Shown here one piece after another: positions 7,328-58,855 of a stretch of DNA of 64,000 nt (the first letter of the stretch is position 1; the number at the start of each line of letters is the position of its first letter). The notes beneath the pieces are model-generated. The model made no database searches. It had not been told where the DNA came from and was given only the letters and a program-made list of their open reading frames with translations. Both the position numbers and the translations under genes were made by a program. The stretch is from Vulcanimicrobiales bacterium. Lineage in GTDB: Bacteria; Vulcanimicrobiota; Vulcanimicrobiia; Vulcanimicrobiales; Vulcanimicrobiaceae. The stretch covers positions 64,001-128,000 of the forward strand of contig JBBRLI010000002.1 of the NCBI GenBank assembly GCA_038231455.1. Direction: 5' to 3'.

Positions 7328-7337
7328 GAATTGAGTG

Positions 7338-30377: not shown

Positions 30378-30829
30378 GGCAACTCCGGCGTCGGCAGCAG
30401 AAGGTTGGTTCCGGAAATCGTCGCGCCGCTGAGGTTCACTCCGCTCAGACGCGCGCCGGTCAAATTCGCATCGGTGAGATCGGCACCTTGGAGATTTGCG
30501 CCGGTCAACCGTGCGCCGTGCAAATCGGCGTGTCGCAGGTTCGCCTGCGAAAGATCGCTGCCGGTGAGATTCGCATCGTGGAGATCCGCGCCCTCAAGAT
30601 TCGCGTGCGTCAGGTTCGCGCCGCTGAGCGAGATTCCGTGAACGTCGGCGCCGCGCAAATCGATGCCGTGCAGATCGCAGCCCGTGCAGCGAAAGAAATT
30701 CGGCAGCCGCATGTGCACCGAGATGAAGGCCGGCGGTTCGGGTGGGATCGGTTGCGGTGCGTCGTGATGATGGGGCGCGAGAAGCAGTCCCGCAAGAAAA
30801 GCGCCAAGGCCGATTGCGATTCCATCCAT
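30374..30829 (-). CDS. pentapeptide-repeat protein with N-terminal hydrophobic segment
   Basis: CTGCDL cap followed by A(N/D)LxG pentapeptide repeats. Confidence 0.88.
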   Translation of the reverse strand: MDGIAIGLGAFLAGLLLAPHHHDAPQPIPPEPPAFISVHMRLPNFFRCTGCDLHGIDLRGADVHGISLSGANLTHANLEGADLHDANLTGSDLSQANLRHADLHGARLTGANLQGADLTDANLTGARLSGVNLSGATISGTNLLLPTPELP

Positions 30830-30830
30830 A

Positions 30831-30851
30831 CAACTATATCCTTAAGAGTCG
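30831..30851. promoter_or_regulatory. putative BlaI-family operator 1
   Basis: CAACTATATCCTTAAGAGTCG; overlaps the AAGGA RBS of the 30829 gene. Confidence 0.65.
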
Positions 30852-30867
30852 AGTGCAGAAAAATAGA

Positions 30868-33135
30868 CTAGAACGTCGCGCGGCTCATGTCCGAGCCGGT
30901 GAAGCTGGCACCGGTCACGTTTGCGCCTTTGAGGTTGGTGCCGTTCATATCGCAGCCGATTAGCTGCGCGCCGCGCAAATCGGCGCCCGCAAGGTTCACA
31001 GAGCGAAGGTCGGCGCCGCTTAGGTGAGCGTCGCGTAAATCGGCGTGCCCGAGGTCCGCACCGCGAAAGTCCGCTCCGCTCAACCGGATACCGTGAAGGT
31101 CGGCGTTGCGCAGATTCGCGTTGCGTAGATCGCAGCCGGAGCAATCGTGTAAGAGGTCACGCGTGTATTGACCTTCGCTCAAGTGAACCCGTCCGATCTC
31201 GGAGCCGGAGAGTTTGACGCCGCCAAGCTGCGCGCCCTCGAGGTTCACATCGATGAGCGACGTCCCAAAGAGGCGAGCGTTGCGTAAATCGGCACCTTGC
31301 AAAGCGGCTCCCCGTAAATCGACTCCTGTGAGCGTAGAGCCGTTCAGATTCGCTCCGCTCAAATCCGCGCCGCGTAAGTTGATGCCGGTGAGTGATTTGC
31401 CGGCGAGATTGATTCCGGAGAGGTCGCGACCGTGAAAATCGCACCCGAGGCACCGGATGACGACCTCGGCCGGAATGGGTCCACCCAGCGGAGCCGATTT
31501 ATGCAAGCGGAGCTGGCGCAGTGGTCCGTTGCCATCGGGAAGTTCGACGCGGAGTTCCGGAATCGACGGACGGATCACAATCGTACGGGAGCGCGGAGCG
31601 AGGCTCGCACTTGGAGCCGGTTCGGGGACGGGCGCGACACCGAGGGGCGGTATCGTCGGCGTAGCGGCCATCGCTTCCGCTGCTGCGGCGAGCGCTGCGC
31701 TGGCAACGCTCGTATCGACGAGCGCCTTCTGTTGCAGCTTGCGGATGGATTGCTCGAGCTCGATTTTGTCGGGATGTTGTCCGCGCAAGATGACGATCTT
31801 GCGTTCGAGGATGCGCGTGTCGGCGCCGCGATGTTCGCGCGCAACATCTTGAATGTGCTGGAGCGCTTGGCGCTGTCCGGGCGTCAGCGGCGTTGGGGCA
31901 CTGCGCGGTTCGGCCACGACGAGTGGGGTCGTCGGCAGCTCTTGAAGTGCGATCGATTTTCGCGTATCGCCGACGATGAAGTTGGGAGCGGGAATCGTGG
32001 TTGCGCTCGGGTGTGCTTGCAGTTTCGCATGCGCGAGCGTCGGCGGGTCCGCGGGCGACGTGAGTTCGATCGCCGGGGCGCTCACGGACATCGTAAGGAT
32101 TGCGAGAGCCGATCCAAGACCAAGCGTTGCGAGCGCCGGTGCCGAGAGGCGCGGCCGCAAATCGCGACGCGCGTCGAGGAGTTGCTCGATGCGGACCGTG
32201 ATTTGTTTGCGCGTCAAGAGAGCCCCGGGCGCGACAATCGCGTGCTCGGGCATGCGCATCTCTTTGGCGAGGCGCCAGAGCGACTCGGCGTACTCTTGCG
32301 GGTGGCCCGTTTGTGCGACCACGCAATCATCGGATGCGATCTCGCGTTCCAGTGCGATGCGTTTGCCGACCAGCCAGACGACCGGGTTAAACCAGAAGAG
32401 TCGCTCGACCACGCGCTGCGCGAAGTTCGTGTAATCGTCGTAGCGACGGAGATGCGCGTGCTCGTGCATGACGAGCGATTCGATCGCGCCGAGTCCCTCG
32501 TGCGTCGCAAGCTCCGTCGGGATCAAGATGACGGGGCGTCCAAATCCAATCGCAACCGGCGTTTCGATTTCGTAGCTCAAGCGCAAATAGATTTCGCGTG
32601 CGCGAACATCGGTGAGCCAAGGGAGTTCGCCGGCAAGCGATCCTTCAAGCGGGCTCGACCGGCGTTTCAGACCTTGAACGCGCAGCACGCTTGCGATCAG
32701 CATCGCAAAGCCAATCGCGGCCCCGGTCGCCCAGATCACGAGCGCACCGATTGCAATGGACTCCGGGATGGTAATCGTCGGAAGACGAGGCGCCGGTGCG
32801 GAGAGCGTCGTCGCTGCTGAAGTGGCGGCAGTCGAGATCGAAGTCGATCCCACGTTCCCGCGATGCGGATGCACCGGCACGGCATCACTCGTCGTGGTCG
32901 CGGCTGTGATATAACGGACGTGCGCGAGTGAACTGACGATGCTCGCCACCGGCAAGATGGCGATCGCGAGCAGCGCCAGCGACCACACGGTGTGGCGCGC
33001 AGCCGCGCGCATCGGGAGAAACTTCTCGACGACCAGCCACACGATGCCGGCGAGGAAGGCGCCGACGAGTGCGCTCTCGGCGAGGGCGCGAACGGCAAGG
33101 CGCGGGAGCGCAGCGAGAAGTTCGCTTGGGATCAC
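30868..33135 (-). CDS. BlaR1/MecR1-like M56 metallopeptidase fused to C-terminal pentapeptide repeats
   Basis: N-terminal TMs, P...G..RP.I..P, HEHAH, D, FWFNP..W, RE..SD, TM, Pro-rich linker, then CLGC- and CSGC-capped pentapeptide blocks. Confidence 0.9.
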   Translation of the reverse strand: MIPSELLAALPRLAVRALAESALVGAFLAGIVWLVVEKFLPMRAAARHTVWSLALLAIAILPVASIVSSLAHVRYITAATTTSDAVPVHPHRGNVGSTSISTAATSAATTLSAPAPRLPTITIPESIAIGALVIWATGAAIGFAMLIASVLRVQGLKRRSSPLEGSLAGELPWLTDVRAREIYLRLSYEIETPVAIGFGRPVILIPTELATHEGLGAIESLVMHEHAHLRRYDDYTNFAQRVVERLFWFNPVVWLVGKRIALEREIASDDCVVAQTGHPQEYAESLWRLAKEMRMPEHAIVAPGALLTRKQITVRIEQLLDARRDLRPRLSAPALATLGLGSALAILTMSVSAPAIELTSPADPPTLAHAKLQAHPSATTIPAPNFIVGDTRKSIALQELPTTPLVVAEPRSAPTPLTPGQRQALQHIQDVAREHRGADTRILERKIVILRGQHPDKIELEQSIRKLQQKALVDTSVASAALAAAAEAMAATPTIPPLGVAPVPEPAPSASLAPRSRTIVIRPSIPELRVELPDGNGPLRQLRLHKSAPLGGPIPAEVVIRCLGCDFHGRDLSGINLAGKSLTGINLRGADLSGANLNGSTLTGVDLRGAALQGADLRNARLFGTSLIDVNLEGAQLGGVKLSGSEIGRVHLSEGQYTRDLLHDCSGCDLRNANLRNADLHGIRLSGADFRGADLGHADLRDAHLSGADLRSVNLAGADLRGAQLIGCDMNGTNLKGANVTGASFTGSDMSRATF

Positions 33136-33515
33136 GGTGCGTTACGCTTCTTGTCGAGCATCGCGCGCAGGTGCGCCAGTTCCGCGTCGTCGACTTCGTC
33201 CGACTCGATCAAGTTGAGCACGAGTTCGCGCGGCGAGTTGTTGAAGAAGCGGGACACGACGTGCGAGACGACACTGCGCTGCGCATCTTCGCGCTCGACG
33301 ATCGCTTTATAAACAAAGGCGCGCCCGATCGCTTTGTGGCGGACGTAGCCCTTTTGTTCGAGGATACGCATGGTCGTGAGCACCGTGTTGTAGGCGAGCG
33401 GCGGATCGCCGAGCGAATCGACGACCTCGGCTACCGTTGCGGTCTCGCGGTTCCAAAGAATATCCATGAGGCGGAATTCCGCCTCGGTAAGCGTCGGCGA
33501 CTTTTTGCGGGCCAT
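33132..33515 (-). CDS. blaI: BlaI/MecI/CopY family transcriptional repressor
   Basis: LTEAE..LM.ILW, AYNTV.T.M..LE.KG, GRAFVY, FF.NS...L. Confidence 0.93.
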   Translation of the reverse strand: MARKKSPTLTEAEFRLMDILWNRETATVAEVVDSLGDPPLAYNTVLTTMRILEQKGYVRHKAIGRAFVYKAIVEREDAQRSVVSHVVSRFFNNSPRELVLNLIESDEVDDAELAHLRAMLDKKRNAP

Positions 33516-33521
33516 ACGGGG

Positions 33522-33568
33522 ACGGTAGCACACGCCTGCCGAGCCGTCAACTAATTCCTTAGGTGTAC
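33522..33568 (-). promoter_or_regulatory. leaderless sigma70-type promoter of blaI with overlapping operator 2
   Basis: TTGACG(33550-33545)-17bp-TACCGT(33527-33522) with TG extension, 6 nt before ATG; operator CAACTAATTCCTTAGGTGTAC at 33548-33568. Confidence 0.65.
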
Positions 33569-34434
33569 TACCCATCGACCCGGGCTCCGGTGAGATCGGC
33601 GTGGCCTAGCGTGCGAAGCTCGTCGGCCGTTACCGGGCGGCAGTTGTGATCGTCGTATTCACAGTACCGGACACCGCGCAAATCGGTGCCGGCCAGCTTC
33701 GCGCCGGAGAAGTCCGCACAGTCCGTTTTTCCCGAGACGGTCACGACGCCGTTGTACGAATGCCGGGTTTCCGGGAAGCACACCGACGCGTTCCGCAGTG
33801 AGGCGCCCTCGAGATGCGCGTTTCGAAAGCTTACACCCAGGAGCGACGCGTCGCTGAGGTCGGCATTGCGCGCGTCGGTATCGTCCATATCCGCGCCGAC
33901 GAGGTGCGCGCGTAAAAACTTCGTGCGTTGCAAGTCGTCGCCGCGGAGATTCGCGCCGATGAGGCGCACGTCGCTAAGGTCAAGGTCGCGGAGATTCGTC
34001 GCACGGAGATCGCAGCCGGTGCAGGAACGGAAAAGCAGCTTTGCATTCCGCATCGATTCGAGCGTTTGATTCGTGATGCGGATGCCCACCAGTTTGACAT
34101 CGGTCAGGGTCGCATTGGCGAAGCTCACGCCATCGAGCGATGTGCCGGTGAATGTGGCGCCGGTCAAGTCGGCTCCGTCGAGCTTCGCGCCGCGCAAATG
34201 GCAGCCCACGAAGTGGGCGCCGCGAAGATTCGCACCGCGTAAATCCGTGCCGTCGAGATTTGCCCCGACGAGCGTAATCTCGTGCAGGTCGCGGCCGTGC
34301 AAGTCGACCTCGCCGAGGTTACAGCCGGTGCACCGCGAGAGCAGTGCGCGCGAGGTATCCTCGGCGCGGACAGTCGTCCCGGCGGCGAGATTCAGGGCCA
34401 CGATCGAGAGGGCAACGATAACGAAGCGTTTCAT
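33568..34434 (-). CDS. secreted pentapeptide-repeat protein
   Basis: Signal peptide MKRFVIVALS...VRA; two CTGC-capped pentapeptide blocks; additional C-terminal Cys. Confidence 0.9.
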   Translation of the reverse strand: MKRFVIVALSIVALNLAAGTTVRAEDTSRALLSRCTGCNLGEVDLHGRDLHEITLVGANLDGTDLRGANLRGAHFVGCHLRGAKLDGADLTGATFTGTSLDGVSFANATLTDVKLVGIRITNQTLESMRNAKLLFRSCTGCDLRATNLRDLDLSDVRLIGANLRGDDLQRTKFLRAHLVGADMDDTDARNADLSDASLLGVSFRNAHLEGASLRNASVCFPETRHSYNGVVTVSGKTDCADFSGAKLAGTDLRGVRYCEYDDHNCRPVTADELRTLGHADLTGARVDG

Positions 34435-40065: not shown

Positions 40066-41046
40066 GTGGGCCAATCGTATGCGGTCATCGGCGCCGGCGC
40101 GATCGGGGGGTACGTTGGCGCGGCGCTAGCGCGCGGTGGGGCGGAGGTCACCCTCGTCGCGCGGGGCGGCCATTTGAAGGCGATGCAGTCGAACGGCGTG
40201 CGTATCACAAGCGAGCGCGGCGATTTCACGGCGCGTCCGCGGGCCGTTGGAACGATCGCGGAAGCGGGCGCAGTCGACGTCGTCATTCTGGCGCTCAAAG
40301 CGCAACAGATTGCGGCGATCGCAAGCGAGCTGCACGCGCTCAATCACGAGCGCACCGCGATCGTGGCGATGCAGAACGGCATCCCCTGGTGGTATTTCCA
40401 GCGCAACGGCGGACCGTACGACGGACGCACGGTGGAATCCGTCGATCCCGGCGGCGTCCTCGCACGCACGATCGATCCGGCGCGCGTCCTCGGCTGCGTC
40501 ATCTACTCATCGACCGAAATCGTCGAGCCGGGGGTGATCCGGCACTTAGAGGGGACGCGGTATTCGCTCGGTGAGCCCGACCGCACGCTGAGCGCGCGCG
40601 CTGCGTCGATCGCAGCGGACTTCGTGGCCGGCGGTCTCAAAGCACCGGTCGAACCGGATATTCGCAAGGATATTTGGGTGAAACTGCTCGGAAACGCGGC
40701 GTTCAATCCGATCTCGGCGCTCACGCGCGCAACGCTCGTCGCGATGGCCGAAGATCCCGCCGTGCACGCGCTCGTTGCGGAGATGATGGCAGAGTGCGTT
40801 GCAATCGCCGGGCGGTTGGGTTCGCCCGTCGACATCGCGATCGAAAAACGCATCGATGGCGCACGGCGTGTCGGCGAGCATAAGACCTCGATGTTACAAG
40901 ATCTCGAAGCGCGCAAAGCCTTCGAACTCGACGCGCTCGTCGGCGCGGTCGTCGAGCTCGGCGCCCTCGTCGGCGTTCCGACGCCGGCGACCTCGCACGT
41001 GTACGCGCTCGCGCATCTACTCGACCGCACGAATCGTGCCGGATGA
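40066..41046 (+). CDS. panE: ketopantoate reductase family protein (candidate oxalyl-CoA reductase, PanE2-like)
   Basis: GAGAIGG, QNGIPWWYF, W.KL.GN..FNP.SAL, HKTSMLQD. Confidence 0.88.
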   Translation: MGQSYAVIGAGAIGGYVGAALARGGAEVTLVARGGHLKAMQSNGVRITSERGDFTARPRAVGTIAEAGAVDVVILALKAQQIAAIASELHALNHERTAIVAMQNGIPWWYFQRNGGPYDGRTVESVDPGGVLARTIDPARVLGCVIYSSTEIVEPGVIRHLEGTRYSLGEPDRTLSARAASIAADFVAGGLKAPVEPDIRKDIWVKLLGNAAFNPISALTRATLVAMAEDPAVHALVAEMMAECVAIAGRLGSPVDIAIEKRIDGARRVGEHKTSMLQDLEARKAFELDALVGAVVELGALVGVPTPATSHVYALAHLLDRTNRAG

Positions 41047-47135: not shown

Positions 47136-47987
47136 ATGTCGACGACAAACGCTACGCGCCAAATTTTTACCCTGCTTCAGGACCAGCGCGAGCGTATTTT
47201 TCCGCGCTGGATCGAAGCGGTCGGGGCGCGTTCGCGCGGGCGTCGCAGTTCGGCGGAAACGCAGGTCGAACTCCGGCCGATCTTCGACGCGCTCGTGGCG
47301 GGCGTGTCGGGCGGCGGCGTCAACGTCGACAATCCGGCATATGATGAGTTGCGCGCGATTCTTGCGGAATATTCGCGGGCACGCGCCCGTCAGGGTTTTA
47401 CGCCTTCGGAGACGGCGTTTGCCATCTTCGCACTTCGCGAAGCCGCACTCGATACGATTCATGACGCGAGCGGCAGCCTCGACTATGCGGACACCGCGGC
47501 GTTCTCGAAACTCGTCGATGGTCTGGGACTCATCACGTTCGAAGCCTTCGCGCTTGCGCGCGAAACGGTCATCGTCAACCAGAACGAACAACTGCTCGAA
47601 CTCTCGACGCCGGTGATCAAGCTTTGGGATGGGATCCTCGCGGTGCCGCTTGTGGGGACGCTCGACTCGGCCCGCACGCAAGTGGTGATGGAGGGTCTTT
47701 TGCAAGCGCTGGTCGACACCGGCAGTTCGCATGCCATCATCGATATCACCGGTGTTCCCGCCGTCGACACGCAAGTCGCGCAGCATTTGCTCAAGACGGT
47801 TGTTGCCGCGCGGCTCATGGGCGCGGAGTGTGTCATTTCGGGGATCCGGCCGCAGATCGCGCAGACGATCGTCGACCTTGGGATCGAATTCGGAGACATT
47901 CCGACCAAAGCCAATCTCGCTGACGCGCTGAAGCTTGCGTTTGCGCGCGCTGGTCTGCACGTGCGTAAGCTGGGCCTGAACGCGTGA
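47136..47987 (+). CDS. rsbR: stressosome scaffold RsbR (N-terminal RsbRD-like domain + STAS)
   Basis: QGFTPSETA, ELSTPV..LW.G.L..PL.GTLDS.R, IDITGV..VDT.VA. Confidence 0.92.
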   Translation: MSTTNATRQIFTLLQDQRERIFPRWIEAVGARSRGRRSSAETQVELRPIFDALVAGVSGGGVNVDNPAYDELRAILAEYSRARARQGFTPSETAFAIFALREAALDTIHDASGSLDYADTAAFSKLVDGLGLITFEAFALARETVIVNQNEQLLELSTPVIKLWDGILAVPLVGTLDSARTQVVMEGLLQALVDTGSSHAIIDITGVPAVDTQVAQHLLKTVVAARLMGAECVISGIRPQIAQTIVDLGIEFGDIPTKANLADALKLAFARAGLHVRKLGLNA

Positions 47988-48385
47988 GCGAGCGTATCCC
48001 GGTCGTCAAAATCGGCCGGGTGCTGATTGCGTCGATTCCAAGCGATCTTGGGGACGATACCGCGCTCCTCTTGCAAGAAGATCTCTCGAAACAAATCGTC
48101 GAGCACGCCGCAAGCGGTGTCATTATCGATATTTCGGCGCTCGATATCGTCGACACGTTCATCGGCCGCATGCTGGCGCGGCTCGCGTCGATTTCGCGCG
48201 TCCTCGATGCGTTGACGATCGTCGTGGGAATGCGACCAGCAGTCGCGATCACCCTGACGGAACTCGGGCTCACGCTTGGCGGTGTGCGCACCGCGATCAA
48301 CAGCGATCGCGCGTTCGAGATTCTGCAATCACTCGACGTCCGGGAAGAAGACGATCTCGCGGATCTCGCCGACCACGTTTCGTGA
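47984..48385 (+). CDS. rsbS: stressosome STAS protein RsbS
   Basis: IDISALDIVDTF, GMRPAVAITLTELG. Confidence 0.92.
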   Translation: MSERIPVVKIGRVLIASIPSDLGDDTALLLQEDLSKQIVEHAASGVIIDISALDIVDTFIGRMLARLASISRVLDALTIVVGMRPAVAITLTELGLTLGGVRTAINSDRAFEILQSLDVREEDDLADLADHVS

Positions 48386-48789
48386 GTGCGGATAGCGACG
48401 GCGAGCGCGTCGATATCTCGACCGACGCGGACGTCGTACGGGTGCGACAGGCCGTCCGCGCGTTTGCGCTGCGGGCCGCGCTCTCGATCGTCGATCAAAC
48501 GAAAATCATCACCGCGGCAAGCGAACTCGCGCGCAACGCCCTTGTCCACGGCGGTGGCGGATTTGCTCGCATCGCCTTAATCGAAGAAAACGGACGCGTC
48601 GGCGTCCGCGCCGCCTTCGAAGATTCTGGCCCGGGAATCGTCGATCTGGAGCGGGCTCTTGTGGGCGGCATCAGCACGGCCGGCGGCCTTGGACTCGGCT
48701 TGTCCGGCAGTCGCCGACTCGTCGATCTCTTTGCGCTTGACTCCGATTCGCGCGGGACGCGCGTCACGGTGACTAAGTGGAAACGCTGA
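48382..48789 (+). CDS. rsbT: RsbT serine/threonine kinase
   Basis: QTKIITAASELARN, D.GPGI, GLGLGL.G..RLVD.F. Confidence 0.92.
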   Translation: MSADSDGERVDISTDADVVRVRQAVRAFALRAALSIVDQTKIITAASELARNALVHGGGGFARIALIEENGRVGVRAAFEDSGPGIVDLERALVGGISTAGGLGLGLSGSRRLVDLFALDSDSRGTRVTVTKWKR

Positions 48790-49793
48790 GCCGTGTCGAG
48801 GACGTGTCGTGGTTTCGCGTCGAGGATTCAAGCGCGCCGGGAGCGGTGCGGCGCGCGGCCGTTACGCTTGCCGCGCGACTCGGATACAGCGAGCACCGCA
48901 CGGGAGAAGTGGCGATCGCCGCAACGGAACTTGCGACGAATTTGCATCGACACGCCATCGAAGGGACGATCGTGCTCCGAATTCGGCGCGACACGTTCGC
49001 TGCCGCAATCGAATTGCTCGCGATCGATGGCGGCCCCGGCATCGCCGATCTCTCGGTGTTCGCGCGCGACGGAAAATCAAGCGCCGGGTCGCTCGGCATT
49101 GGCCTTGGCGCTGCGATGCGCCTTGCAACGTGGTTCGATGCCTATTCGCTCCTCGGACGCGGGACGGTCATGATCGCGACCTTTTGGCCGGACGAGCGCA
49201 GCCATATCGGCACGAACATCGCCGGGTTGACCCGCGCAATGATCGATACGGAACCCTGCGGCGATGCGATCGCGCATCGCGAGAGTCCCGAGGTGACGAC
49301 CGTGTTGCTAGCAGATGGACTCGGACACGGAGAACTCGCTGCGGTCGCCTCCCGCGCAGCGGTTCGGGCGTTTGCAATCGATGAGGAGCCGCAGCGCGAT
49401 CCGGTGGCGACGTTACACCTGTTGCACCCCGCCCTCAAGACCACGCGCGGAGCGGCAGTGGGCATCCTGCGGCTCGATTGGGGAAAGCGAGCGATCACCT
49501 TCGCCGGCGTCGGGAATATCGAGGGTTGGGTCGATGATGGCGAGCGGCGTCGATCGCTTGCCTCGACACCCGGCATCATCGGCAGCAACACGCGGAAGAT
49601 CCGAGAATATACGCTCCCGATGCCAACCGCCGGACTCGTCATTCTTCACACGGACGGGTTGACGGGCAAGTGGAATTTGGACGATTATCCCGGGCTGCGC
49701 GGACGCGACCCGCATCTCGTCGCTGCGACGCTGATGCGCGATGCCGGTATCCGAGCGGACGACCGCGGCATCGTTGTCGTGAAGGTCGCATGA
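48777..49793 (+). CDS. HATPase-PP2C fusion (RsbX-like phosphatase)
   Basis: ELATNL..H, D.GPG, G.LG.GLG; CGD, ADGLGHG, HTDG, DD. Confidence 0.85.
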   Translation: METLSRVEDVSWFRVEDSSAPGAVRRAAVTLAARLGYSEHRTGEVAIAATELATNLHRHAIEGTIVLRIRRDTFAAAIELLAIDGGPGIADLSVFARDGKSSAGSLGIGLGAAMRLATWFDAYSLLGRGTVMIATFWPDERSHIGTNIAGLTRAMIDTEPCGDAIAHRESPEVTTVLLADGLGHGELAAVASRAAVRAFAIDEEPQRDPVATLHLLHPALKTTRGAAVGILRLDWGKRAITFAGVGNIEGWVDDGERRRSLASTPGIIGSNTRKIREYTLPMPTAGLVILHTDGLTGKWNLDDYPGLRGRDPHLVAATLMRDAGIRADDRGIVVVKVA

Positions 49794-51046
49794 ACGAGTT
49801 GTTGGCAAAACTGCCGCTGCATTTTGCAGAGCATGTCTTTGAGCTGCGGCATGCGGCGCGTGTCGCGTCGGCGGCGCTTGGATGCGATGAGGCCGATCAA
49901 GTGCGATTCGCGACGGCGCTGAGTGAACTGGGCCGCGAAGCGCTCGCGCACGGCGGCGGCTCGACGGCGGCGATCAGCCTCGAACGCGACGGCGCTCTCG
50001 TCATCGACGTCGGTCACTTCCCGCGCAGCGCGCTCGAGGGCAAGGAGATGACGGGGATCGATGCCGCGCGCAAGCTCGTCGGCGATGTCGTCGTGACGGA
50101 TCGAAAATCGCATCCGACGGTAACGGTAACGCTGCGCCTTGCTCGCACGACCTCCCGGCCGCGCGCCACAGCAAACGATCTTCGCCTAGCGCTTTCGATC
50201 AAAGCCGCGCCGCTCGAAGATCTGCGACTCGAAAACAAAGATCTGATCGCAACGCTCGAAGCGCTCAAGTCCAAAGCGACCGAACTCGTGGCGCTTAACG
50301 ATGAACTCGAAGAAACCAATCGCGGCGTCATGGCGATGTATGACACCGAGCGGATCATCGCGCTGAGCCTGCAACACAATTTGCTGCCCGATGCGGCACC
50401 GACGATCGCCGGGATGGACGTTGCGGTCCGGTATGTGGCAAGCGCCGAGCACGCCGAAGTCGGCGGCGATTTCTACGAAATTTTCACGCTACCCGACGAC
50501 AAGATCGCAATCGCCATCGGCGATGTGGCCGGCCATTCGCTCGAAGCGGCAATGGTGATGGCGCAACTGCGCACGGGCATACGCTGCTATCTTGTGGACG
50601 GCTATGGGCCAGCGCAGACGCTCGCACGTCTCAATCGCCTGCTCTTGCAGTTCCATCCCGAGTGGTCGGCGACGGTCTGTTGCGCGATCTACGATCGTCG
50701 AACGGGCCGGTGCGAGGTTGCCAATGCCGGTCATCACCCGCCGCTGCTGCGCACGCGCAGTGGGATCGACTTTCTTCCGCCCGGCGGCACCTTACTCGGC
50801 GTCGACGCGCCGACCGCACCCGAGCATACCGTGGTGTTGGAAAAAGACGACCTTTTCTTGATGTTTACCGATGGACTCATCGAACGGCGCGACGAGTCGA
50901 TCGATACCGGACTCGCGCGTCTTCGAGCTGCGGTAACCGCGCCCGCCGCGCATCTCGATGAACTGTGCGATCGCGTGCTTCGTGAGGTCGGCCCGGTAAG
51001 CGTTCAAGACGATATCGCGATCGTCGCGATTCGTCCGCAAAACTAA
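49790..51046 (+). CDS. RsbU-like PP2C phosphatase (stressosome output)
   Basis: Degenerate HATPase-like N-domain, coiled coil ELEETNRGV, PP2C VGGDFY, GDVAGH, FTDGL, DDIA. Confidence 0.87.
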   Translation: MNELLAKLPLHFAEHVFELRHAARVASAALGCDEADQVRFATALSELGREALAHGGGSTAAISLERDGALVIDVGHFPRSALEGKEMTGIDAARKLVGDVVVTDRKSHPTVTVTLRLARTTSRPRATANDLRLALSIKAAPLEDLRLENKDLIATLEALKSKATELVALNDELEETNRGVMAMYDTERIIALSLQHNLLPDAAPTIAGMDVAVRYVASAEHAEVGGDFYEIFTLPDDKIAIAIGDVAGHSLEAAMVMAQLRTGIRCYLVDGYGPAQTLARLNRLLLQFHPEWSATVCCAIYDRRTGRCEVANAGHHPPLLRTRSGIDFLPPGGTLLGVDAPTAPEHTVVLEKDDLFLMFTDGLIERRDESIDTGLARLRAAVTAPAAHLDELCDRVLREVGPVSVQDDIAIVAIRPQN

Positions 51047-51762
51047 GTCGGGTCGGCTCCGAGATACGCGGTCGTGACGGCGCGATTCGTCGCAAGTTCG
51101 GCGCCGGTGCCGCCGAGGACGACGCGCCCCCGTTCGAGCACGTATGCGCGATCGGCCATGGCGAGCGCCCGGCGTGCGTTTTGCTCGACGAGCAAAATTG
51201 TCGTGCCCGCAGCACGCAGTTCGGCGACGATCGCAAAGATCTCGGAGACGAGTTTCGGCGCTAGCCCCATCGAGGGTTCATCGAGCAAGAGGAGCCGCGG
51301 TTTGCTTGCCATTGCGCGGGCAATTGCGAGCATTTGCTGCTCTCCGCCGGAGAGCGAGCCCGCCGGTACGCCTCGGCGCGTTTCGAGAATGGGGAAGCGC
51401 TCGTAGAGCGCGGCGACTGTTTTTGCGCGTTCGCTCTGCGGCGTGAGGGCGGCTGCAATGAGCAAATTCTCATCGACGGACATCGCCTGGAGCATGCGGC
51501 GTCCTTCGGGGACGTGCGCGAGCCCTCGGCGCACGATGTCGTGCGGCGCGACGCGACTGATGTCGAGCCCGTCAAAATGGACGCTGCCGCCGCGTTTGGG
51601 AATGACGCTCGAAATCGCGAGCAGCAGCGTCGTCTTTCCCGCACCGTTGGCACCAACGATCGCGCATAGCGTCCCCGCTTCGAGCTCGAGCGAGACATCG
51701 TGGAGAATTTCGACTTTCCCGTATCCGGCGCGCAGGTTCTCAACGCGCAGCAGCTCGCTCAT
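51043..51762 (-). CDS. livF: HAAT-family ABC ATP-binding subunit
   Basis: GANGAGKTT, VPEGRR, LSGGEQQMLAI, DEPSMGLAP. Confidence 0.92.
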   Translation of the reverse strand: MSELLRVENLRAGYGKVEILHDVSLELEAGTLCAIVGANGAGKTTLLLAISSVIPKRGGSVHFDGLDISRVAPHDIVRRGLAHVPEGRRMLQAMSVDENLLIAAALTPQSERAKTVAALYERFPILETRRGVPAGSLSGGEQQMLAIARAMASKPRLLLLDEPSMGLAPKLVSEIFAIVAELRAAGTTILLVEQNARRALAMADRAYVLERGRVVLGGTGAELATNRAVTTAYLGADPT

Positions 51763-52481
51763 ATCGCAACCGTATCCGCGCCGAGGTAAGCTTCGATCAC
51801 GAGCGGATCCACGGCGATCGACGCCGGCGTGCCGCGCGCGATAACCTCGCCGAAGTTCAGCACCACGACGGCATCGCATGCCGCGCGGACGAGCGTCATG
51901 TCGTGCTCGATGAGCAGCATGCCGATGCCGCTTGCGGCGATCGTGCGGATGATACTCGTGAGGCGCGCGGTTTCCACCGGGTTCATGCCGGCGGCGGGTT
52001 CATCGAGCAAGATCACCGTCGGATTTGAAGCCAGCGCACGTGCGATTTCCAGCCGTCGCTGGTCGCCGTAACTGATCGATGCGGCAGGCGCATCGAGGTC
52101 CACTTCGTTGAGATCGACGCGCGCGAGCAGTGCGCGTACCGCACGCTCGTCGAAAACCTTGCTCTGCGTGAATGCACCGGCGCTAACGTTGGTGCGCACG
52201 TCGAGCGCCCCGAAGAGGCGGATGTTTTGATACGTGCGCGCGATTCCGGCGCGCGCGATGCGATGCGGCGCAATGCCGTCGATGCGCTTCCCGCCCAGCC
52301 GGATGCTGCCCGCATCGATGCCGACAATTCCGGTAACGGCGTTGATCAGTGAGGTCTTCCCGGCGCCGTTGGGTCCGATAAGGCCGAGGACGGAACCCGC
52401 CTCGACGGCGAGGGCGACATCTCGCACGGCGGTTACTCCGCCATAGCGCACGGCTACGCCGTCAAGTTCGAGTCCGCTCAT
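51759..52481 (-). CDS. livG: HAAT-family ABC ATP-binding subunit
   Basis: GPNGAGKT, RTYQN, YGDQRRLEIARALA, DEPAAG, EHDM. Confidence 0.92.
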   Translation of the reverse strand: MSGLELDGVAVRYGGVTAVRDVALAVEAGSVLGLIGPNGAGKTSLINAVTGIVGIDAGSIRLGGKRIDGIAPHRIARAGIARTYQNIRLFGALDVRTNVSAGAFTQSKVFDERAVRALLARVDLNEVDLDAPAASISYGDQRRLEIARALASNPTVILLDEPAAGMNPVETARLTSIIRTIAASGIGMLLIEHDMTLVRAACDAVVVLNFGEVIARGTPASIAVDPLVIEAYLGADTVAI

Positions 52482-53305
52482 GATTTCGCGCGCCGCCAAA
52501 GTCCCGCGATCCCTTGCGGAGCAAAGAGGACGACGCCCAGGAGAATCGCGCCATTCGTCACTTCGCGATAGTCCGCAAGAAACCGAATCGTCTCCGGGAG
52601 CAACGTAAGGACGATCGAACCAACAACCGCGCCGATGGCGCTCGTCGACCCGCCGATTACGCACGCGACGAGGATCTGCTCCATACGTCCAAAACCGAAA
52701 TCGGCCGGCGTGATGAAGAAGTTGGAGTGCGCGTAGAGCACGCCTGCGATTCCGGCGATCGCGCCGCCGAGCGCGAGCGTCCAGAAACGGACACCCGCCG
52801 TATCGACGCCCACGCCGCGCGCGGCGGTTTCATCCTCACGCGTAAGGGCGATCGCGAGCGCGAACTTCGTCCGGCTCAGGAGATAGAGCGCGATGCAAAC
52901 GATGATGAGCGCGCCGTAGATGACGAACGTATTGGCATCGGATGGAATCTGCGAGAGCCCCTCGCCGCCACCGGTGAGTTTGAGATTATTTGCAACGATA
53001 CGCAGAATTTCGCCGAAGCCGATCGTCGCAATCGCAAGAAAGACACCGCGCAAACCGCGAACGGGCAGTGCAAGCAGCATCGCTGCGAGTGTCGAGGCGA
53101 GTGCCCCAATCGCGATGCACGGCAGGAGCGGTAGACCCGCGGAGACCGCGAGGATCGCTCCGATATACGCGGCAATGCCCATGAATGCAGCCTGCGCGAG
53201 TGCAAGTTGTCCCGCTTGCAAACAGACCGAAAGCGAGAGGGCGAGCAGCGCGTTGATCGCAAGCTGATCGAACAACTTGGAATGGGAGGTAAAAAACGAG
53301 ATCAT
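52478..53305 (-). CDS. livM: HAAT-family ABC permease
   Basis: GQL.L.QAAF.GI.AY, LRG.FLAIAT.GFGEI, TGG.EG. Confidence 0.9.
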   Translation of the reverse strand: MISFFTSHSKLFDQLAINALLALSLSVCLQAGQLALAQAAFMGIAAYIGAILAVSAGLPLLPCIAIGALASTLAAMLLALPVRGLRGVFLAIATIGFGEILRIVANNLKLTGGGEGLSQIPSDANTFVIYGALIIVCIALYLLSRTKFALAIALTREDETAARGVGVDTAGVRFWTLALGGAIAGIAGVLYAHSNFFITPADFGFGRMEQILVACVIGGSTSAIGAVVGSIVLTLLPETIRFLADYREVTNGAILLGVVLFAPQGIAGLWRRAKS

Positions 53306-54180
53306 GCGGCGCGCAGTGCGCGCTTGCCGAAGAGTCCGCGCGGACGTAAGACCAGGATCAGAAACATAACGCCGAAGGCGATTGCGTCCCGCCAGTTCGA
53401 TGAGATGTACGCAACCGATAGCGTTTCGACCGCCCCGAGAATGAAGCCGCCAACGACGGCTCCCGTAATCGATCCCATTCCGCCCAGAATGATAACCGCA
53501 AGACCCTTGAGTTCGATTCCGGCACCCATGTCGACCGTGACGCTATTATAGTGCAGGCCGGTGAGAATTCCGGCGGCGCCGCCGAGTGCCGAGGCGATGA
53601 AAAACGTCATCGCGATCGTCTTCTCGAGATCGACGCCGAGCAACACGGCGGCAACGCGGTCTTCCGCGACGGCGCGGATGTTGCGCCCGAGTGCCGTTGC
53701 GCGCAAGACGTAACTCAAGCCGAGCATCAAAGCCAGAGCCGCGCCGAACGTCACGAGTTCGACTGTCGTGACGGTAATCGCGCCAAGGTGGATCGGCGGT
53801 GCATCGCCTAAAGCATTGGGAAAATGTCGCTCGTCGATGCCCCAGATGCCGCGCGCGATCGCGCCGATGATGATCGAGACGCCAATCGAGGAAATCAGGG
53901 GAATAAGCGTGCCGGCGTTCCGTCTACGCAGCGGGGCGAACGCAACGCGATCGAGTGCGATGCCCACCAAGCCCGCGAGCAGGCAGCCGCCTAGAAACGC
54001 AAGCCAGAGCGGCACGCCGGCCGCCACGAGCGCATACGTGGCGAATGCCGCGATCATGAAGATCGCGGCATGTGCCAGATTGAGGATGTCGAGTACGCCG
54101 AATACGAGCGTATACCCGACCGCGAAGAGCGCGTAGACGGACCCAACGACGAGCCCGTTGACGAGCTGTTGAAGCAGCAC
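53302..54180 (-). CDS. livH: HAAT-family ABC permease
   Basis: QQLVNGL..GSVYAL.AVGYTLVFG, IRAVAED, ILGGMGS..GA. Confidence 0.92.
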   Translation of the reverse strand: MLLQQLVNGLVVGSVYALFAVGYTLVFGVLDILNLAHAAIFMIAAFATYALVAAGVPLWLAFLGGCLLAGLVGIALDRVAFAPLRRRNAGTLIPLISSIGVSIIIGAIARGIWGIDERHFPNALGDAPPIHLGAITVTTVELVTFGAALALMLGLSYVLRATALGRNIRAVAEDRVAAVLLGVDLEKTIAMTFFIASALGGAAGILTGLHYNSVTVDMGAGIELKGLAVIILGGMGSITGAVVGGFILGAVETLSVAYISSNWRDAIAFGVMFLILVLRPRGLFGKRALRAA

Positions 54181-54183
54181 GCG

Positions 54184-55311
54184 TTATTTAAAGTACGCGA
54201 AGCCGCCTTTGACGATCTGCAATATCACGGGCGCGCTCTTCACGTCGCGGTTGCCGTCAAAGCCAATCGGGCCAAGGACTGTTTTTGCAAGCGGCAGTGC
54301 CTTGAGGCCGCTGCAAATTTCCGCGGGAGTCGTCGCGCCGTTCTTGACGACGGCGGCAATGACTTGCGCGCCCGCATACGCTTGTGCGGCGAACTGATCG
54401 GGATCACCGCCGAAACGTTTTTTATAGCGTTCGACGAACGCTTTGTTGCCGGTGTAGTTCGCACCGATGAACCATGCTGCGCCGACGGCCGTGCCGGCGG
54501 CACCGGGTCCCGCGTCGTTGTAAATCGTCGGTGAGTTGAGGCCGTTGCCGCCCATCAGGTGGCCCGTGTAGCCGAGCTTGCGCGCCTGTGCGATGATCTT
54601 CACGCCTTCGGGTGCGAGCGCGCCGATCACGATGAGATCGGGCTTCTTGTCGTTGATCTTCGTGAGCTGCGCTTGGAAGTCGACGTCTTTTTGGTGGAAC
54701 GTCTCGGTGTCGACGATCTGCACGCCGGCCTTATCGAGTTGCTCTTTGAAGATGTCGCCGTTGGTTTTGGTAAAGGCGTTATCGTCGCCGTAGATGATCG
54801 CGGCGGTTTTATACTTCCACGATTTAAGCGTCTTTTTGATCGTCGTCGGAATCACTTGCGCCTCGGAGAGTGAGACCCGATAGACGCACGAACCAAGCGA
54901 CGTGATGCCGTCGGCGGTCGTCGAGGTGCCGAGCACCGGGAAATTTGCTTTGACAGCGATCGGGTCGGCTTTCTTTGCTTCGCCCGAGAGTGTCGGCCCA
55001 AGGACAACGGCGCTGCCGTCGGTCGTGAACTTCTGCATGAGCGTTGCGACTTGGTTACCGTCGCTTGCCGCATCTTGCACCTCAAAGGACAAGTTCGCGC
55101 CGCCCGCATCGATGAGACCGCTTTTGATGTCGTCGTTTGCGAGCTCGTAGGCGTTCTTCTGCGGCGTGCCGTACACGCCGGCGCCGCCGGTAACATCGGC
55201 GATCACACCGGCCTTAACGGTCTTTCCGGCGGCGGGGCCTTTGCCGGCCGCAAATGCGGGCGTCGTGAGTGCGAGTGCCGCAATGGCGGCGATCGAGAGA
55301 AACGTACGCAT
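54184..55311 (-). CDS. livK: HAAT-family ABC substrate-binding protein
   Basis: Sec signal; TG.A..YG, GPTLS, DF.AQLTKI, PDQFAAQAY. Confidence 0.9.
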   Translation of the reverse strand: MRTFLSIAAIAALALTTPAFAAGKGPAAGKTVKAGVIADVTGGAGVYGTPQKNAYELANDDIKSGLIDAGGANLSFEVQDAASDGNQVATLMQKFTTDGSAVVLGPTLSGEAKKADPIAVKANFPVLGTSTTADGITSLGSCVYRVSLSEAQVIPTTIKKTLKSWKYKTAAIIYGDDNAFTKTNGDIFKEQLDKAGVQIVDTETFHQKDVDFQAQLTKINDKKPDLIVIGALAPEGVKIIAQARKLGYTGHLMGGNGLNSPTIYNDAGPGAAGTAVGAAWFIGANYTGNKAFVERYKKRFGGDPDQFAAQAYAGAQVIAAVVKNGATTPAEICSGLKALPLAKTVLGPIGFDGNRDVKSAPVILQIVKGGFAYFK

Positions 55312-55339: not shown

Positions 55340-58036
55340 TTAGGCGCGGCTTGCGGTGCTCCCCGCTAGTTGTCCCGTCTCTTCGGCGAAAAGCATCTGC
55401 CGCTCGCTTTCGAGATCGTGGGTCGATTCGACGGAGCGCAAACTCTCGTTGCTGTGATAGTCGATCAGCATGGACATCTCTTCAAAATTGCCGTGCATGG
55501 CAAAGGCGCGCTGCCCTTCGCTCGTTGCCTCGCGCTGCGCCTCGGAGAGCGTGTCGATGATGCTCTCGGTAAATGTGTCGATGCGCGCGAGCGCTGCCTC
55601 GGCGAGCCCCGCCTGCTTTGCGCTCCGCTCCGCTTCGCCGACGCCCGAGGCAATCGCGGTTGCCGCGGCCTTGCCGCGGCCGTCGAGATCGGCGAGGACG
55701 CCGCGCATCTGCTGCGTCGAGGCGCGCGTCTTGTCGGCAAGGCTGCGAACTTCGGTTGCGACCACCGCAAAGCCGGCGCCGTGATCGCCGGCGCGCGCCG
55801 CTTCGATTGCGGCGTTGAGCGCGAGCAGGTTGGTGCGGTCGGAGACGCCCCGGACCAGCGTGATGATCTCGCCGATCTGCCGCATGAGCGCGCCGAACTG
55901 CGTGAGGGCGTGACGGCTCTCCATCGCCATCGTTGCGAGCGTCGAAACCGCCTCGGCGAGACCGCGGACGGTTTCGCGCGTCGCGTGCACTTCATCTTGT
56001 GCCGTCGCGAAGCGCATCAGGAGATCGGTAAAGTCGTTCGCGATCTGCGTGTTGCGTTCGGCCATCTGCGCCGAGCGCTCCCCGAGTTCGAGCAATCGCG
56101 GCGTTTGTTCTTTCCCATGCATCGCCGACTCCGTCGCGGAGGTACGCACGGCGGAAATCGCCGTGTCGATCGCCTCGATGATGTCGTGAATTTGAAATTT
56201 GCGACGTGCGGCGCGCTGGGCTTCCTGGGATTGCGGCCGATCGATCTTGTGTGCGTCGCCGCCGAGCAGCAGATCGTAAATGTCATCGGGAAAAAGCGGT
56301 TGCATCCGTTCCCAAACGAAGTGACCCGCGCGCGAAAATGCGCCGCGCTCGGCTTCGGTGAGGTCGCGGACCTCCATCGTCTTGCGCAGTTCCGCAAGCG
56401 CGTGTTCCTCTTCGTCGTGCGCGATCGCGCGATGCCACGGAATCACCTCGGCCATCGTATCGATGACGAGCGCGCGGTCTTCCTCACCCAGGCGTGCTAG
56501 CGTTTCGCTGTTTGCGAGCACGACTTGCGTGTTGTAGGTGTGCGCGGTGAGCGTGAGGTGGCGCTGCACTTCGTGCAGCTTGGCGCCGTAAATGTTGGCG
56601 AGCGGATTTTCTTGCCCGTCGAGAGCACCCGTCTTGAGGGCTTCGTAAACGCCCCCAAATGGCATGACTTTCGGTGCGGCGGAGAACGCGTGCATCAGCG
56701 CAAGATAGACGACTGAGTCCTGAATGCGCATGCGCATTCCGCGCACGTCCGCCGGCGTTGCAATTGCGCGCGAGGCGCTCGTCATGTGGCGGATGCCGTT
56801 CTCGAAATACCCCATGCCGGTAAGGCCGAACGGTTCGAACGCCGAGAGGACGCGCGCGCCGAGCCCGCCGTCGAGAACGCGATGTGCGGCGCTCGCGCTC
56901 GGAAAAAGAAACGGCAGATCGAAGACTTGCGCGAGCGGAAGGAGCGAACCCGCGATGTATGTCGTGACGCTCACGAAATCGAGTTGACCCGAGCGCACCT
57001 GCATGAGCATCTCGAGTTCGCTTCCGGCGAAAGGCACCTGGAGTTCGACGGTGATGCGTCCGCCGGTGCGCTCGCGAACCTGTTGCGCGAAGCGCTCCCA
57101 TGCGCGCGACGGCGGATAGCCCGGCGGTAATTGCGTCGCGCAGCGTAAGGTCGTGATCGCTTCATCGCGCGGATGCGCGGGGCGCGAGAAATACATGATC
57201 TCCGCGCCGTAGTAGGCGAGGCGCTGCGTCGAAAACGCGGCTTCGATCGCTTGTCGCCCTTGGGTCTCGGCGATTTGCGCGAGCGTTTGCGTTTCGCGCC
57301 CGATCGCCGTCGACGTCTCCGCGTGGGCGCGGCCGATCGCAACCGATTCTTGCAGTGCGCGCATAACGTCTTGCGCGAGTGCTGCGACGCGTTCTAGGGA
57401 CGAGCGCGCGGCGATTGCGATCGGTGCGGATTTTGCGGACCGCTCGGCCGATTCGCGCACGGAGGTGATGGTGACTTCGGCTTGCGCTTGAATCTGTTCG
57501 ACGAGTTCTTTGATCGCATGCGTCGAGTCGCTGGTCGCCTTCGCCAGTCGTCCGACCTCGCCCGCGACAACCGCAAAGCCGAGTCCGTGCGTACCCGCGC
57601 GCGCCGCTTCGATCGCGGCGTTGAGCGCGAGAAGCTGGGTTTCGTCGCTCACGTCCTCGACGAATTCGGTCATCTGCCCGATCTCGCCCATCAGTCGACC
57701 GAAATCGTCCATCGCGGCAGCCGTTCCGGTTGAAAGTTCGGCGAGCCGCTGAACGGACGAAAGCAGTTCCTCGACGATGTGTAGCGAGTCGGTGAGATCG
57801 CCCGATGCGCTGCGCGCATCCGCCTGCGTTGCCTCCAGACGCGCGACCGTTGCGGTTGACTCCTCAGCGAGTAAACCCGCCGATTCGGCGAGTGCGGCCA
57901 TGAGCATTGTCTGTTCTTGGGCGTTTGCTGCAATCGATTCGGAAGCGGTACGTACGGCATCGGCCGATGTCGCTAGCGACTGCGCGAATTCATCGAGACG
58001 CGGAATATCGGGCAGCAAGTCCAGGACGATCGACAA
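55340..58036 (-). CDS. soluble chemoreceptor with two MCP signalling domains flanking a TRAP DctP-type domain
   Basis: Two tips ([24 protein letters not shown] and [24 protein letters not shown]) around [23 protein letters not shown]; no TM segment. Confidence 0.88.
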
Positions 58037-58048
58037 GGGCAGGGCTCC

Positions 58049-58855
58049 CTAGGCACGGACCAAGTGCGGACGGAGCAAACGCATAAACGCGCCAAAACGC
58101 GTGTCGTTCACATCGCTTGATTCGAGCCCGGTATATACGACGAGGACGTAGCGCTCGCCGCTTTCGAGCTCCAAGATACCACCGTCGTGCGAGACCTCAT
58201 CGGTGTCCCCCGTTTTGTGCATGAAGCGGTCGCCGGCGCAGAGGCCAGCCGGGAGCTTCGATTGCCAATACTGGTCGGCAAGCGTTTGGCGCAAAATTGA
58301 GGCGCCGGGGATGCGGCCTGCGTCGATCGCCTCGAAGAGGGTCGCGGCGTCACGTGCGGAGTGGGTGTTGCGACCGGTCGCCTCGGGGTCGTCGATGAGC
58401 GGCAGCGCGCCGGAGAGCTTGCGGTGGATCTCCGTTTGTTCGAGTCCAATGGAAGCGCAGAAATCCGTCGCGCGCGCGCGGCCGACGATGTCGATGAGGA
58501 CGTTGGTTGCCACGTTGTCGGAACGCGAAAGCATCAACTCGACGAGCTCCGCGACGGTCGCAACGTATCCCGCCTTCATCGGCGAGGGAGCGTCGTTGAC
58601 CGTCATGTTGTCCGGGCCGACTTCGAAACGCTGGCCCCACCAAAGCCGCTTGCTAGCTACGTCGCTCGCCACGGCTGCCGCCAAGGGGGTTTTGATCATG
58701 CTGGCCGGGTAGAGCGGGCTGCCGTTGTCTAAGGCCGCGCGGACGGGGGTTGCGCCCTTGAGGCACGCGAGGTAGATCGTCGCGGTTTCGAGACCCGCGG
58801 AGGCACTCAGGAGGGCGAGGGTCTCCGGTCCTACCACGCGGATCGGCCGATGCAA
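58049..58855 (-). CDS. class A beta-lactamase-like serine hydrolase
   Basis: ASMIK (SxxK), SDN, HKTG, HD.G motifs; no clear signal peptide. Confidence 0.85.
   Translation of the reverse strand: MHRPIRVVGPETLALLSASAGLETATIYLACLKGATPVRAALDNGSPLYPASMIKTPLAAAVASDVASKRLWWGQRFEVGPDNMTVNDAPSPMKAGYVATVAELVELMLSRSDNVATNVLIDIVGRARATDFCASIGLEQTEIHRKLSGALPLIDDPEATGRNTHSARDAATLFEAIDAGRIPGASILRQTLADQYWQSKLPAGLCAGDRFMHKTGDTDEVSHDGGILELESGERYVLVVYTGLESSDVNDTRFGAFMRLLRPHLVRA

Follow-up and report, generated by a model that had tools for sequence, protein, structure and literature searches.

A soluble MCP-DctP-MCP protein, with a TRAP-type binding domain between two chemoreceptor hairpins, in Vulcanimicrobiaceae

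The window analyzed here is a 64,000-nt stretch of contig JBBRLI010000002.1 (positions 64,001 to 128,000) from a Vulcanimicrobiales bacterium. Its minus-strand gene at 55340..58036 encodes a soluble 898-aa protein (P0001) in which two complete methyl-accepting chemotaxis protein (MCP) signaling hairpins enclose an intact DctP domain, the solute-binding domain of tripartite ATP-independent periplasmic (TRAP) transporters. This MCP-DctP-MCP architecture, assigned from the list of open reading frames (ORFs), the translation, Pfam and NCBIfam, is certain. The protein represents a real, conserved and clade-restricted form of chemoreceptor, in which the second hairpin is new and the MCP-DctP core is more widely distributed. 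As to its function, we give about even chances to a cytoplasmic, carboxylate-sensing, single-chain pseudodimeric chemoreceptor of the flagellar CheA/CheW pathway.

Domain architecture and conservation

The ORF is a single stop-free frame that starts at a TTG codon, with GGGAG located 5′ of it, 12 nt past the stop of the upstream gene; a scan for promoters and terminators gave no signal beyond shuffled expectation. The order of parts in the protein is a hairpin at residues 14-284, the DctP domain at residues 296-590 and a second hairpin at residues 616-886. The Pfam DctP profile (PF03480) matches residues 301-578 over positions 3-282 of its 286 (E 5.2e-71; 239.7 bits against a cut-off of 23.4), and the NCBIfam dctP model TIGR00787 scores 219.5 bits, above its cut-off of 175.05. 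MCPsignal (PF00015) matches in two stretches (E 6.4e-51; 173.1 bits against a cut-off of 34.6). An earlier note on this DNA, which had read the gene as two full MCP hairpin tips around an intact DctP-like domain, is thus borne out, and the motifs it quoted, ENGIRH, MRMRI and DGQENP, are all found in the translation.

The same note had seen neither a signal peptide nor a transmembrane (TM) helix, and the hydropathy profile agrees: no hydrophobic or TM segment is present in the 898-aa protein, in which the highest 19-residue Kyte-Doolittle mean is 1.47, below 1.6. In contrast, nine other MCPs of the same genome contain hydrophobic segments of at least 2.3. TM segments are also absent from all nine members of the three-part family that were examined. 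The DctP domain is internal to the protein, held between cytoplasmic hairpins and devoid of an export signal. Also as the note had stated, no DctQ or DctM gene lies next to the gene; the 3.71-Mb genome has a single DctM match, which adjoins an ordinary DctP gene on a different contig (C5:2033-3244). Because there is neither an export signal nor a DctQM partner, the middle domain is not a TRAP transporter subunit, and public names on homologues such as "DctP family TRAP transporter solute-binding subunit" represent a systematic mis-annotation of these receptors that is corrected here. The C-terminal end mostly follows directly after a conserved LERQRxALF sequence, and the tethering pentapeptide is absent.

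The three-part form is sharply delimited. A protein search returned 89 clusters that contain both Pfam domains at E ≤2e-176, the next match being a generic MCP at E 2.8e-22, and 83 of the 89, from several sources, measure 838-903 aa and share 52-92% identity. These 83 clusters, together with the near-invariant tips described below, indicate purifying selection on the three-part protein. The source names of the homologues (Candidatus Eremiobacteraeota, Baltobacteraceae, Vulcanimicrobiaceae and Velthaea) lead to Eremiobacterota. As a word-based search can miss relatives, and had left the single-hairpin forms unlisted, an exhaustive HMMER scan of 1.84 billion representatives was carried out. Among the 505 proteins that it found at E ≤1e-30, a single representative (P0006) aligns over residues 1-886, fragments aside, and the three-part form is thus confined to one 50%-identity cluster. 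At least 19 further matches (572-723 aa) are MCP-DctP proteins with one hairpin, and most of the others among the best 150 are ordinary binding proteins of ∼330-350 aa. At the genome level, full-length copies were found in 35 of the 301 phylum genomes sampled, all within one family (f1) and spread across 16 of its genera, and one more genome (G115) has a copy split by a frameshift. The 301-genome tallies, including those for CheW and co-occurrence given below, take in a few unpublished genomes, none of which is a carrier.

Signaling hairpins, their pairing and output

Hairpin 1 (residues 14-284; 57185..57997, on the minus strand like the other features of the gene) consists of helices 14-146 and 148-284, and hairpin 2 (residues 616-886; 55379..56191) of helices 616-752 and 754-886, as delimited by the AlphaFold2 (AF2) secondary structure, the MCPsignal stretches and the heptad periodicity. 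The canonical tip motif (22 protein letters) is present in both. In the 80-sequence alignment of the family, the CheA/CheW-binding tip consensus is almost invariant in tip 1 (residues 133-165; 57542..57640) as well as in tip 2 (residues 735-767; 55736..55834). Each tip nonetheless departs from the consensus in its own way, tip 1 with invariant GLGF and EVGR sequences and tip 2 with GKGF and GFNVV in most sequences, differences that would fit two non-equivalent halves without proving anything.

The two connections to the DctP domain differ in conservation. The junction between hairpin 1 and the DctP domain (residues 256-295; 57152..57271), which includes a conspicuous 14-letter stretch, is highly conserved over residues 256-285 (column entropy ∼0.5) and variable over residues 286-300 (entropy 1.9), and the start of the N-terminal arm of hairpin 1 (residues 31-45) is equally conserved, with an entropy of 0.39. 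The linker between the DctP domain and hairpin 2 (residues 591-615; 56192..56266) is variable in sequence, with an entropy of 2.64 at residues 601-615 and a predicted local distance difference test score (pLDDT) of 54-65. The span from P583 to F614, which reaches into the DctP part, measures 29-34 residues, and 30-32 in 70 of the 80 sequences.

When stacked on the tip, the MCP hairpins of this genome retain 280 of 285 columns out to ±140 residues, and both hairpins of the 898-aa protein share one heptad phase with the other MCPs over ±130 residues. This near indel-free stacking and common phase mean that the soluble receptor and the membrane receptors belong to one length class and that the hairpins could share one array. 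The helices of the AF2 model span 133 and 137 residues in hairpin 1 and 137 and 133 in hairpin 2; such arms of ∼19-19.5 heptads suggest a 38H or 40H class, with small gaps in all of the alignments of the hairpins to the PDB structures 6s18, Tsr and Tm1143.

The AF2 model, computed from the 80-sequence alignment, has a mean pLDDT of 83.3 and a predicted TM-score (pTM) of 0.62, and the hairpin arrangement in it was deduced by structural alignment. Several four-helix bundles made of one chain can be superposed on parts of hairpins 1 and 2 simultaneously: 6z0c_A (Maquette-3; Z 17.4, rmsd 3.2, 199 of 199 residues aligned) over model range 90..813, 3o1h_A (the TorS sensor; Z 12.7, 216 residues) over 66..832 and 9j47_A (ScdA; Z 12.4, 149 residues) over 54..845. 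Because the superposed ranges are symmetric around the tips at 147 and 753, the model is one intramolecular bundle whose tips lie next to each other, the arrangement seen in a normal MCP dimer. The hairpins are predicted with a pLDDT of ∼85-86, whereas the only hairpin of the paralogue described below reaches ∼74 when folded in the same manner. In a split-chain test of residues 1-598 against residues 599-898, agreement between runs was at least 87% of contacts and partner pLDDT at least 77, and the result was graded "weak support" (score 0.60, with the best of three controls at 0.00); the same pass mark is attained by 58 of 80 solved complexes and by 2 of 110 mismatched pairs. Thus, between the two arrangements that the earlier note had left side by side, an intramolecular pseudodimer and a bridge between two array layers, the predictions lean to the former, and a pseudodimer is plausible as a feasible fold that the predictors prefer.

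In such a receptor, one chain would do the job of the two chains of an ordinary receptor dimer: the hairpins would fold back on each other as a single four-helix bundle that carries its two tips at one end, and the soluble receptor would feed the cell's single flagellar CheA/CheW pathway. The N-terminal part of TRAP binding proteins forms lobe I and the C-terminal part lobe II (PMC11668362). Hairpin 1 would therefore end in lobe I, via the conserved junction, and hairpin 2 would follow the lobe II part, via the length-fixed linker. With the hairpins hanging on different lobes, the flytrap would, on closing, move hairpin 2 relative to hairpin 1 in the bundle, and this shift between the bundle halves would bias the way in which CheA is controlled at the paired tips. 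The cytoplasmic DctP Venus flytrap could in this way report how much of a small organic acid the cell contains, a form of metabolism-linked taxis. The narrower proposal, that this is a natural single-chain receptor in which the flytrap sits between the bundle halves, with one lobe per half, and its closure is turned into an asymmetric shift, we advance tentatively and at somewhat less than even chances.

To our knowledge, almost all chemoreceptor studies concern symmetric homodimers with N-terminal sensors. If the proposed mechanism is true, TRAP binding-protein domains serve inside the cell as MCP sensors, and the presence of both bundle halves in one chain, with a single sensor, would make receptor asymmetry, which has long been debated, testable with genetically distinct halves. 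The single-chain geometry of flytrap transduction would be new among MCPs and could form a base for intracellular metabolite sensors, and the receptor would offer a handle on which aspects of their metabolism are monitored by motile bacteria of this soil phylum, of which few have been cultured.

Several observations weigh against the pseudodimeric receptor. The distal arms of hairpin 2 have an entropy of 1.3-1.9 compared with 0.4-1.1 for those of hairpin 1, which would not readily be expected if the two are packed together. No core-packing complementarity was found between the hairpins in the side-chain volumes of their a/d layers, where the deviations correlate positively (r +0.49 across columns and +0.52 across layers), and a test for compensation across orthologues was powerless, its within-hairpin control having failed. 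The predictions themselves call for caution. The paralogue was folded from 33 sequences rather than 80, which makes the pLDDT contrast imperfect; split-chain passes at 0.60 or below comprise 7 of the 80 solved complexes and both of the passing mismatches, and by the tool's own grading a pass at 0.60 is mostly wrong unless the guess is likely a priori. Moreover, monomer and two-chain folds cannot offer the pairing of a homodimer (N-N′, C-C′) and, since MCP dimers have been solved, both predictions may simply mirror the likeness to them. The protein also departs from a typical MCP in one respect. Its HMM matches, tips and coiled coils are those of an MCP, but the strict methylation-site consensus, [ASTG]2-x2-[EQ]2-x2-[ASTG]2, is absent from both hairpins in all three members examined, where non-canonical sites are possible; five of nine membrane MCPs of the genome carry it at one column. 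Normal adaptation of the 898-aa receptor is doubtful because of this absence. Conservation of the gene context, moreover, is limited to close relatives.

The strongest rival is a homodimer with two separate bundles (1-1′ and 2-2′), which would be either a DosM-like rod that staples two CheA/CheW layers of a cytoplasmic array together or a dimer folded back to provide two neighboring "dimers" of one array; we regard such an assembly as rather unlikely. It would agree with a one-hairpin ancestor that must have dimerized through its hairpin, with the variable, low-pLDDT linker before hairpin 2 and with the lack of complementary packing between the hairpins, and two other soluble MCPs in the genome could help to build a cytoplasmic array. 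It also has a precedent. Like the 898-aa protein, DosM of Vibrio cholerae (VC1403) is a soluble MCP with two complete hairpins per chain. DosM belongs to F9 clusters, which also encode a triple-CheW protein, and stretches as an extended rod from one baseplate to another; 98% of its homologues lack a sensor domain (PMC9321776 and PMC7534058). Double-hairpin receptors can thus span two baseplates (PMC7534058). However, neither a triple-CheW protein nor an F9 set was found in this genome, whose only two CheW-domain matches are CheA and a 169-aa CheW, and nearly all of the relatives listed have exactly two such matches. The 898-aa protein further differs from DosM in its ∼300-aa sensor between the hairpins, in its predicted folded-back shape and in the grouping of both hairpins with the MCP-DctP lineage of this genome. 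The analogy to DosM that the earlier note had drawn is therefore weak. A single-hairpin MCP-DctP partner is likewise absent in most carriers (co-occurrence 4 of 43, with five candidates scored per genome), the tips lie side by side in the AF2 model, with the weak split-chain result pointing the same way, and a linker held to 29-34 residues would be unusual for a free tether.

The genome contains the machinery that a chemotactic output would use, for which the earlier note had suggested a search. There are 12 MCP genes, and one CheA and the 169-aa CheW are clustered with FliR, FlhB, FlhA, a PilZ protein, CheY and a CheC/CheX-type protein; the genome also encodes two CheR proteins and a single CheB. 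CheW was found in 157 of the 301 phylum genomes and in 33 of the 36 carriers (35 intact and one split). It is nonetheless conceivable, though improbable, that the protein is MCP-like with a non-flagellar output, as a metabolite regulator or scaffold tied to an ABC transporter or as a kinase-silent decoy. Directly downstream, after a gap of 28 nt, lie the genes of a Liv/HAAT-type ABC transporter (51043..55311, minus strand), comprising a binding protein, two permeases and two ATPases, named by NCBIfam matches below cut-off. Their synteny with the gene is kept in four close relatives (G283, G130, G164 and G161), a linkage that counts in favor of a non-chemotactic role, as do the missing methylation consensus and the three carriers in which CheW was unmatched. 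On the other side, the ABC linkage is held only in the subclade at ≥62% identity and is missing at all nine more distant loci, which have unrelated neighbors; the CheA/CheW-binding consensus of the tips is near invariant in 80 sequences; and the three CheW-negative carriers are assemblies of 88-93% completeness in 290-550 contigs. In addition, one genus (g4) lacks both CheW and the gene, each being found in 0 of its 59 genomes.

The DctP site and its candidate ligand

The DctP domain (residues 296-590; 56267..57151) retains the ligand site of TRAP binding proteins. By sequence, its nearest solved structure is 4P47 (E 1.3e-49), and in the alignment E340, R416, R437, F460 and N477 pair with D76, R152, R173, Y196 and N213 of 4P47. 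In 4P47 numbering, the carboxylate site comprises R152, R173 (which provides the salt bridge) and N213, together with an aromatic residue at position 196 and an acidic one at position 76 (PMC11668362). All five residues are invariant in 80 of 80 family members, as are many pocket-lining positions. The family thus has the Arg/Arg/Asn triad of TRAP binding subunits (R416, R437 and N477), and the conserved carboxylate-binding arginine that the earlier note had expected is kept as part of an invariant pair; both arginines are also present in 21 of 21 free TRAP binding proteins. The DctP part of the AF2 model is nearest to open apo TRAP proteins (8t9t, TMt 0.89, rmsd 2.2, with further matches to 4p47, TMt 0.89, and 2cey, TMt 0.88), and comparisons to TRAP binding proteins give Z scores of 23-34, with 8t9t_A at 33.8. 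Compared with the TRAP binding proteins SiaP, DctP, IseP and 4P47, the domain therefore has the full DctP fold, the Arg pair, the Asn, the aromatic lid and the acidic residue in common, and differs in having no signal peptide or partner DctQM and in being embedded in a cytoplasmic signaling protein.

For the 898-aa protein, a role in sensing carboxylates in the cytoplasm is likely. Close relatives of 4P47 have been crystallized with pantoate or erythronate, and the acidic site residue usually hydrogen bonds with a ligand hydroxyl (PMC11668362). On the basis of these ligands and this hydroxyl contact, our best guess for the ligand, and only a guess, would be a small carboxylate of the hydroxy or keto type. 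At 40066..41046 on the plus strand, the window encodes a ketopantoate reductase (PanE/ApbA); no link between it and the receptor was shown.

A DctP domain that is blind to ligand, and acts as a structural spacer or a protein-interaction module, appears quite unlikely. In its favor, the site is eroding in the soluble single-hairpin relatives, where the aromatic lid is kept in 1 of 11 and N477 in 7 of 11. Within the three-part family, in contrast, the five site residues are invariant, in 80 of 80 aligned sequences and in 5 of 5 in the comparison set, a degree of conservation equal to that in free transporter proteins, and the model is near the open apo forms.

Origin, assembly integrity and neighborhood

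The window contains a second protein of related layout, a soluble 639-aa single-hairpin MCP-DctP paralogue (P0122; 9587..11506, minus strand) that domain searches and trees mark as the likely ancestral form. There are ∼30 clusters of such soluble single-hairpin proteins. A separate set of HAMP-MCP-DctP proteins of 684-723 aa includes proteins from Sporomusa carbonis and from a Rhodocyclales metagenome-assembled genome; P0154, P0156-P0161 and matches of the exhaustive scan taken together, such forms measure 644-723 aa. These long forms are from other phyla, and N-terminal TM segments were found in 15 of the 17 examined. A cytoplasmic C-terminal DctP sensor on MCPs thus appears to be a wider, uncharacterized theme. 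A comparable arrangement is known from Helicobacter TlpD, a cytoplasmic chemoreceptor in which a C-terminal sensor, the CZB domain, follows the hairpin and responds to an intracellular signal; TlpD-type receptors have one hairpin and another sensor fold and are dimeric.

In a tree of DctP domains, the three-part family (support 100) and the soluble single-hairpin group (97) are sisters, joined with a support of 97, and the DctP domains of the membrane-anchored forms fall in at least three places, which suggests several independent MCP-DctP fusions. In a tree of hairpins, both hairpins of the three-part protein and those of the single-hairpin forms make up one clade among the MCPs of the genome (support 90/99). 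Hairpins 1 and 2 are sisters with a support of 82/86, and the alternative, in which hairpin 1 groups with the single-hairpin forms, is not rejected (p-AU 0.355). The most economical history would be that an MCP-DctP protein gained a second hairpin of MCP-DctP type at its C terminus; the trees of hairpins 1 and 2 are congruent, consistent with their having diverged together after this gain. Thus the three-part proteins share with the single-hairpin forms a hairpin followed by a cytoplasmic C-terminal DctP domain, and differ from them in the second hairpin and, relative to the soluble ones, in their better-kept site residues. The step proposed by the earlier note, in which a TRAP binding protein was repurposed as an intracellular sensor, is older and wider than the gene, as shown by the broader MCP-DctP family, its member in the same window and the membrane-anchored HAMP-MCP-DctP proteins of other phyla. 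What sets the three-part protein apart is its second hairpin alone.

One of the other soluble MCPs of the genome, an 866-aa protein (G000:C1:63817-66417; L001:1818-4418, plus strand), has two tandem hairpins that arose by an independent internal duplication (support 96/98). Its layout resembles that of DosM, yet the genome has no F9 system. The ∼225-aa C-terminal domain of this protein has no sequence match in Pfam or the PDB; the ESM Atlas provides a lead, with 0.95 to "putative MCP" clusters and 0.88 to MCP-like_PDC_1.

The possibility that the gene is an assembly chimera or a pseudogene is effectively refuted. Unitig-type contigs do break at both tips, which are repeats common to many MCP genes, and the copy in G115 is in two frames; however, the likely source run yields an independent 1828-nt contig over window positions 55802-57629 with 0 differences, which covers the C-terminal arm of hairpin 1, the DctP domain and the N-terminal arm of hairpin 2. 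In that run the depth over the gene is even, at 12.4-13.9, with contig breaks only at the two tip repeats. Tip 1 is bridged by a 1362-nt contig from a relative. Other runs contain only small shares, and the contigs in them come from relatives at 90-95%. The same layout is found in the 35 carrier genomes, including the single-contig assemblies G130, G136, G201 and G144, and among the 83 near-full-length clusters. ORFs of 880-984 aa are intact at 8 of 8 loci inspected, and the internal stops that had been flagged thus lie at alignment ends.

The tip-coding stretches at 55778-55834 and 57594-57630 behave as assembly repeats at which unitigs end. In the 100-nt bins that contain them, the summed contig depth in the likely source run reaches ∼316 for tip 2 and ∼85 for tip 1, compared with 12-14 elsewhere, and another run shows values of up to 505; metagenomic MCP genes may often be broken or mis-joined at this stretch. 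In G115 (L029; G115:C7 ∼8300-8460), the frameshift that splits the gene falls within the variable linker between the DctP domain and hairpin 2, and could be an assembly indel or could reflect a natural MCP-DctP protein with a free hairpin.

As the earlier note had supposed, the architecture is uncharacterized, in that literature searches found no characterization of it. No description of a DctP-MCP fusion was found, though the supplement of PMC9321776 on the sensor-bearing 2% of DosM homologues, a paper available in part, might hold one. Nothing on such a receptor was found in the accessible portions of the literature on Eremiobacterota chemotaxis, and intracellular sensing by TRAP-domain MCPs is absent from the available parts of two reviews of signaling by solute-binding proteins (PMC8050422 and PMC10443332).

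Upstream of the receptor gene, across the 12-nt gap, lies a gene for a class-A β-lactamase-like serine hydrolase (58049..58855, minus strand), named by an NCBIfam match below cut-off, which adjoins the orthologue in three of the four closest loci examined (G283, G164 and G161, but not G130). The single-hairpin paralogue is in an acyl-CoA carboxylase neighborhood: 3′ of it on the same strand are genes for a carboxyltransferase (7967-9541), a short-chain dehydrogenase/reductase (6533-7372), an alpha/beta hydrolase (5120-6532) and a biotin carboxylase (3167-4984). The Liv-type transporter beside the receptor gene and the acyl-CoA carboxylase genes beside the paralogue are weak hints of branched-chain metabolism. 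Gene context was set aside as a clue to the ligand, given that the ABC synteny is limited to the closest subclade and that the names of the neighbors are below cut-off.

Beyond the transporter genes, the window encodes a stressosome-like module on the plus strand (47136..51046), with an RsbR-type RsbRD_N+STAS protein (47136-47987), an RsbS-type STAS protein (47984-48385), an RsbT-type kinase (48382-48789) and two SpoIIE/PP2C phosphatase genes (48777-49793 and 49670-51046). Farther away on the minus strand, at 30374..34434, a BlaI-type repressor (33132-33575) is encoded beside a fusion of a BlaR1 M56 peptidase with pentapeptide repeats (30868-33135), and the pair is flanked by two more pentapeptide-repeat proteins.

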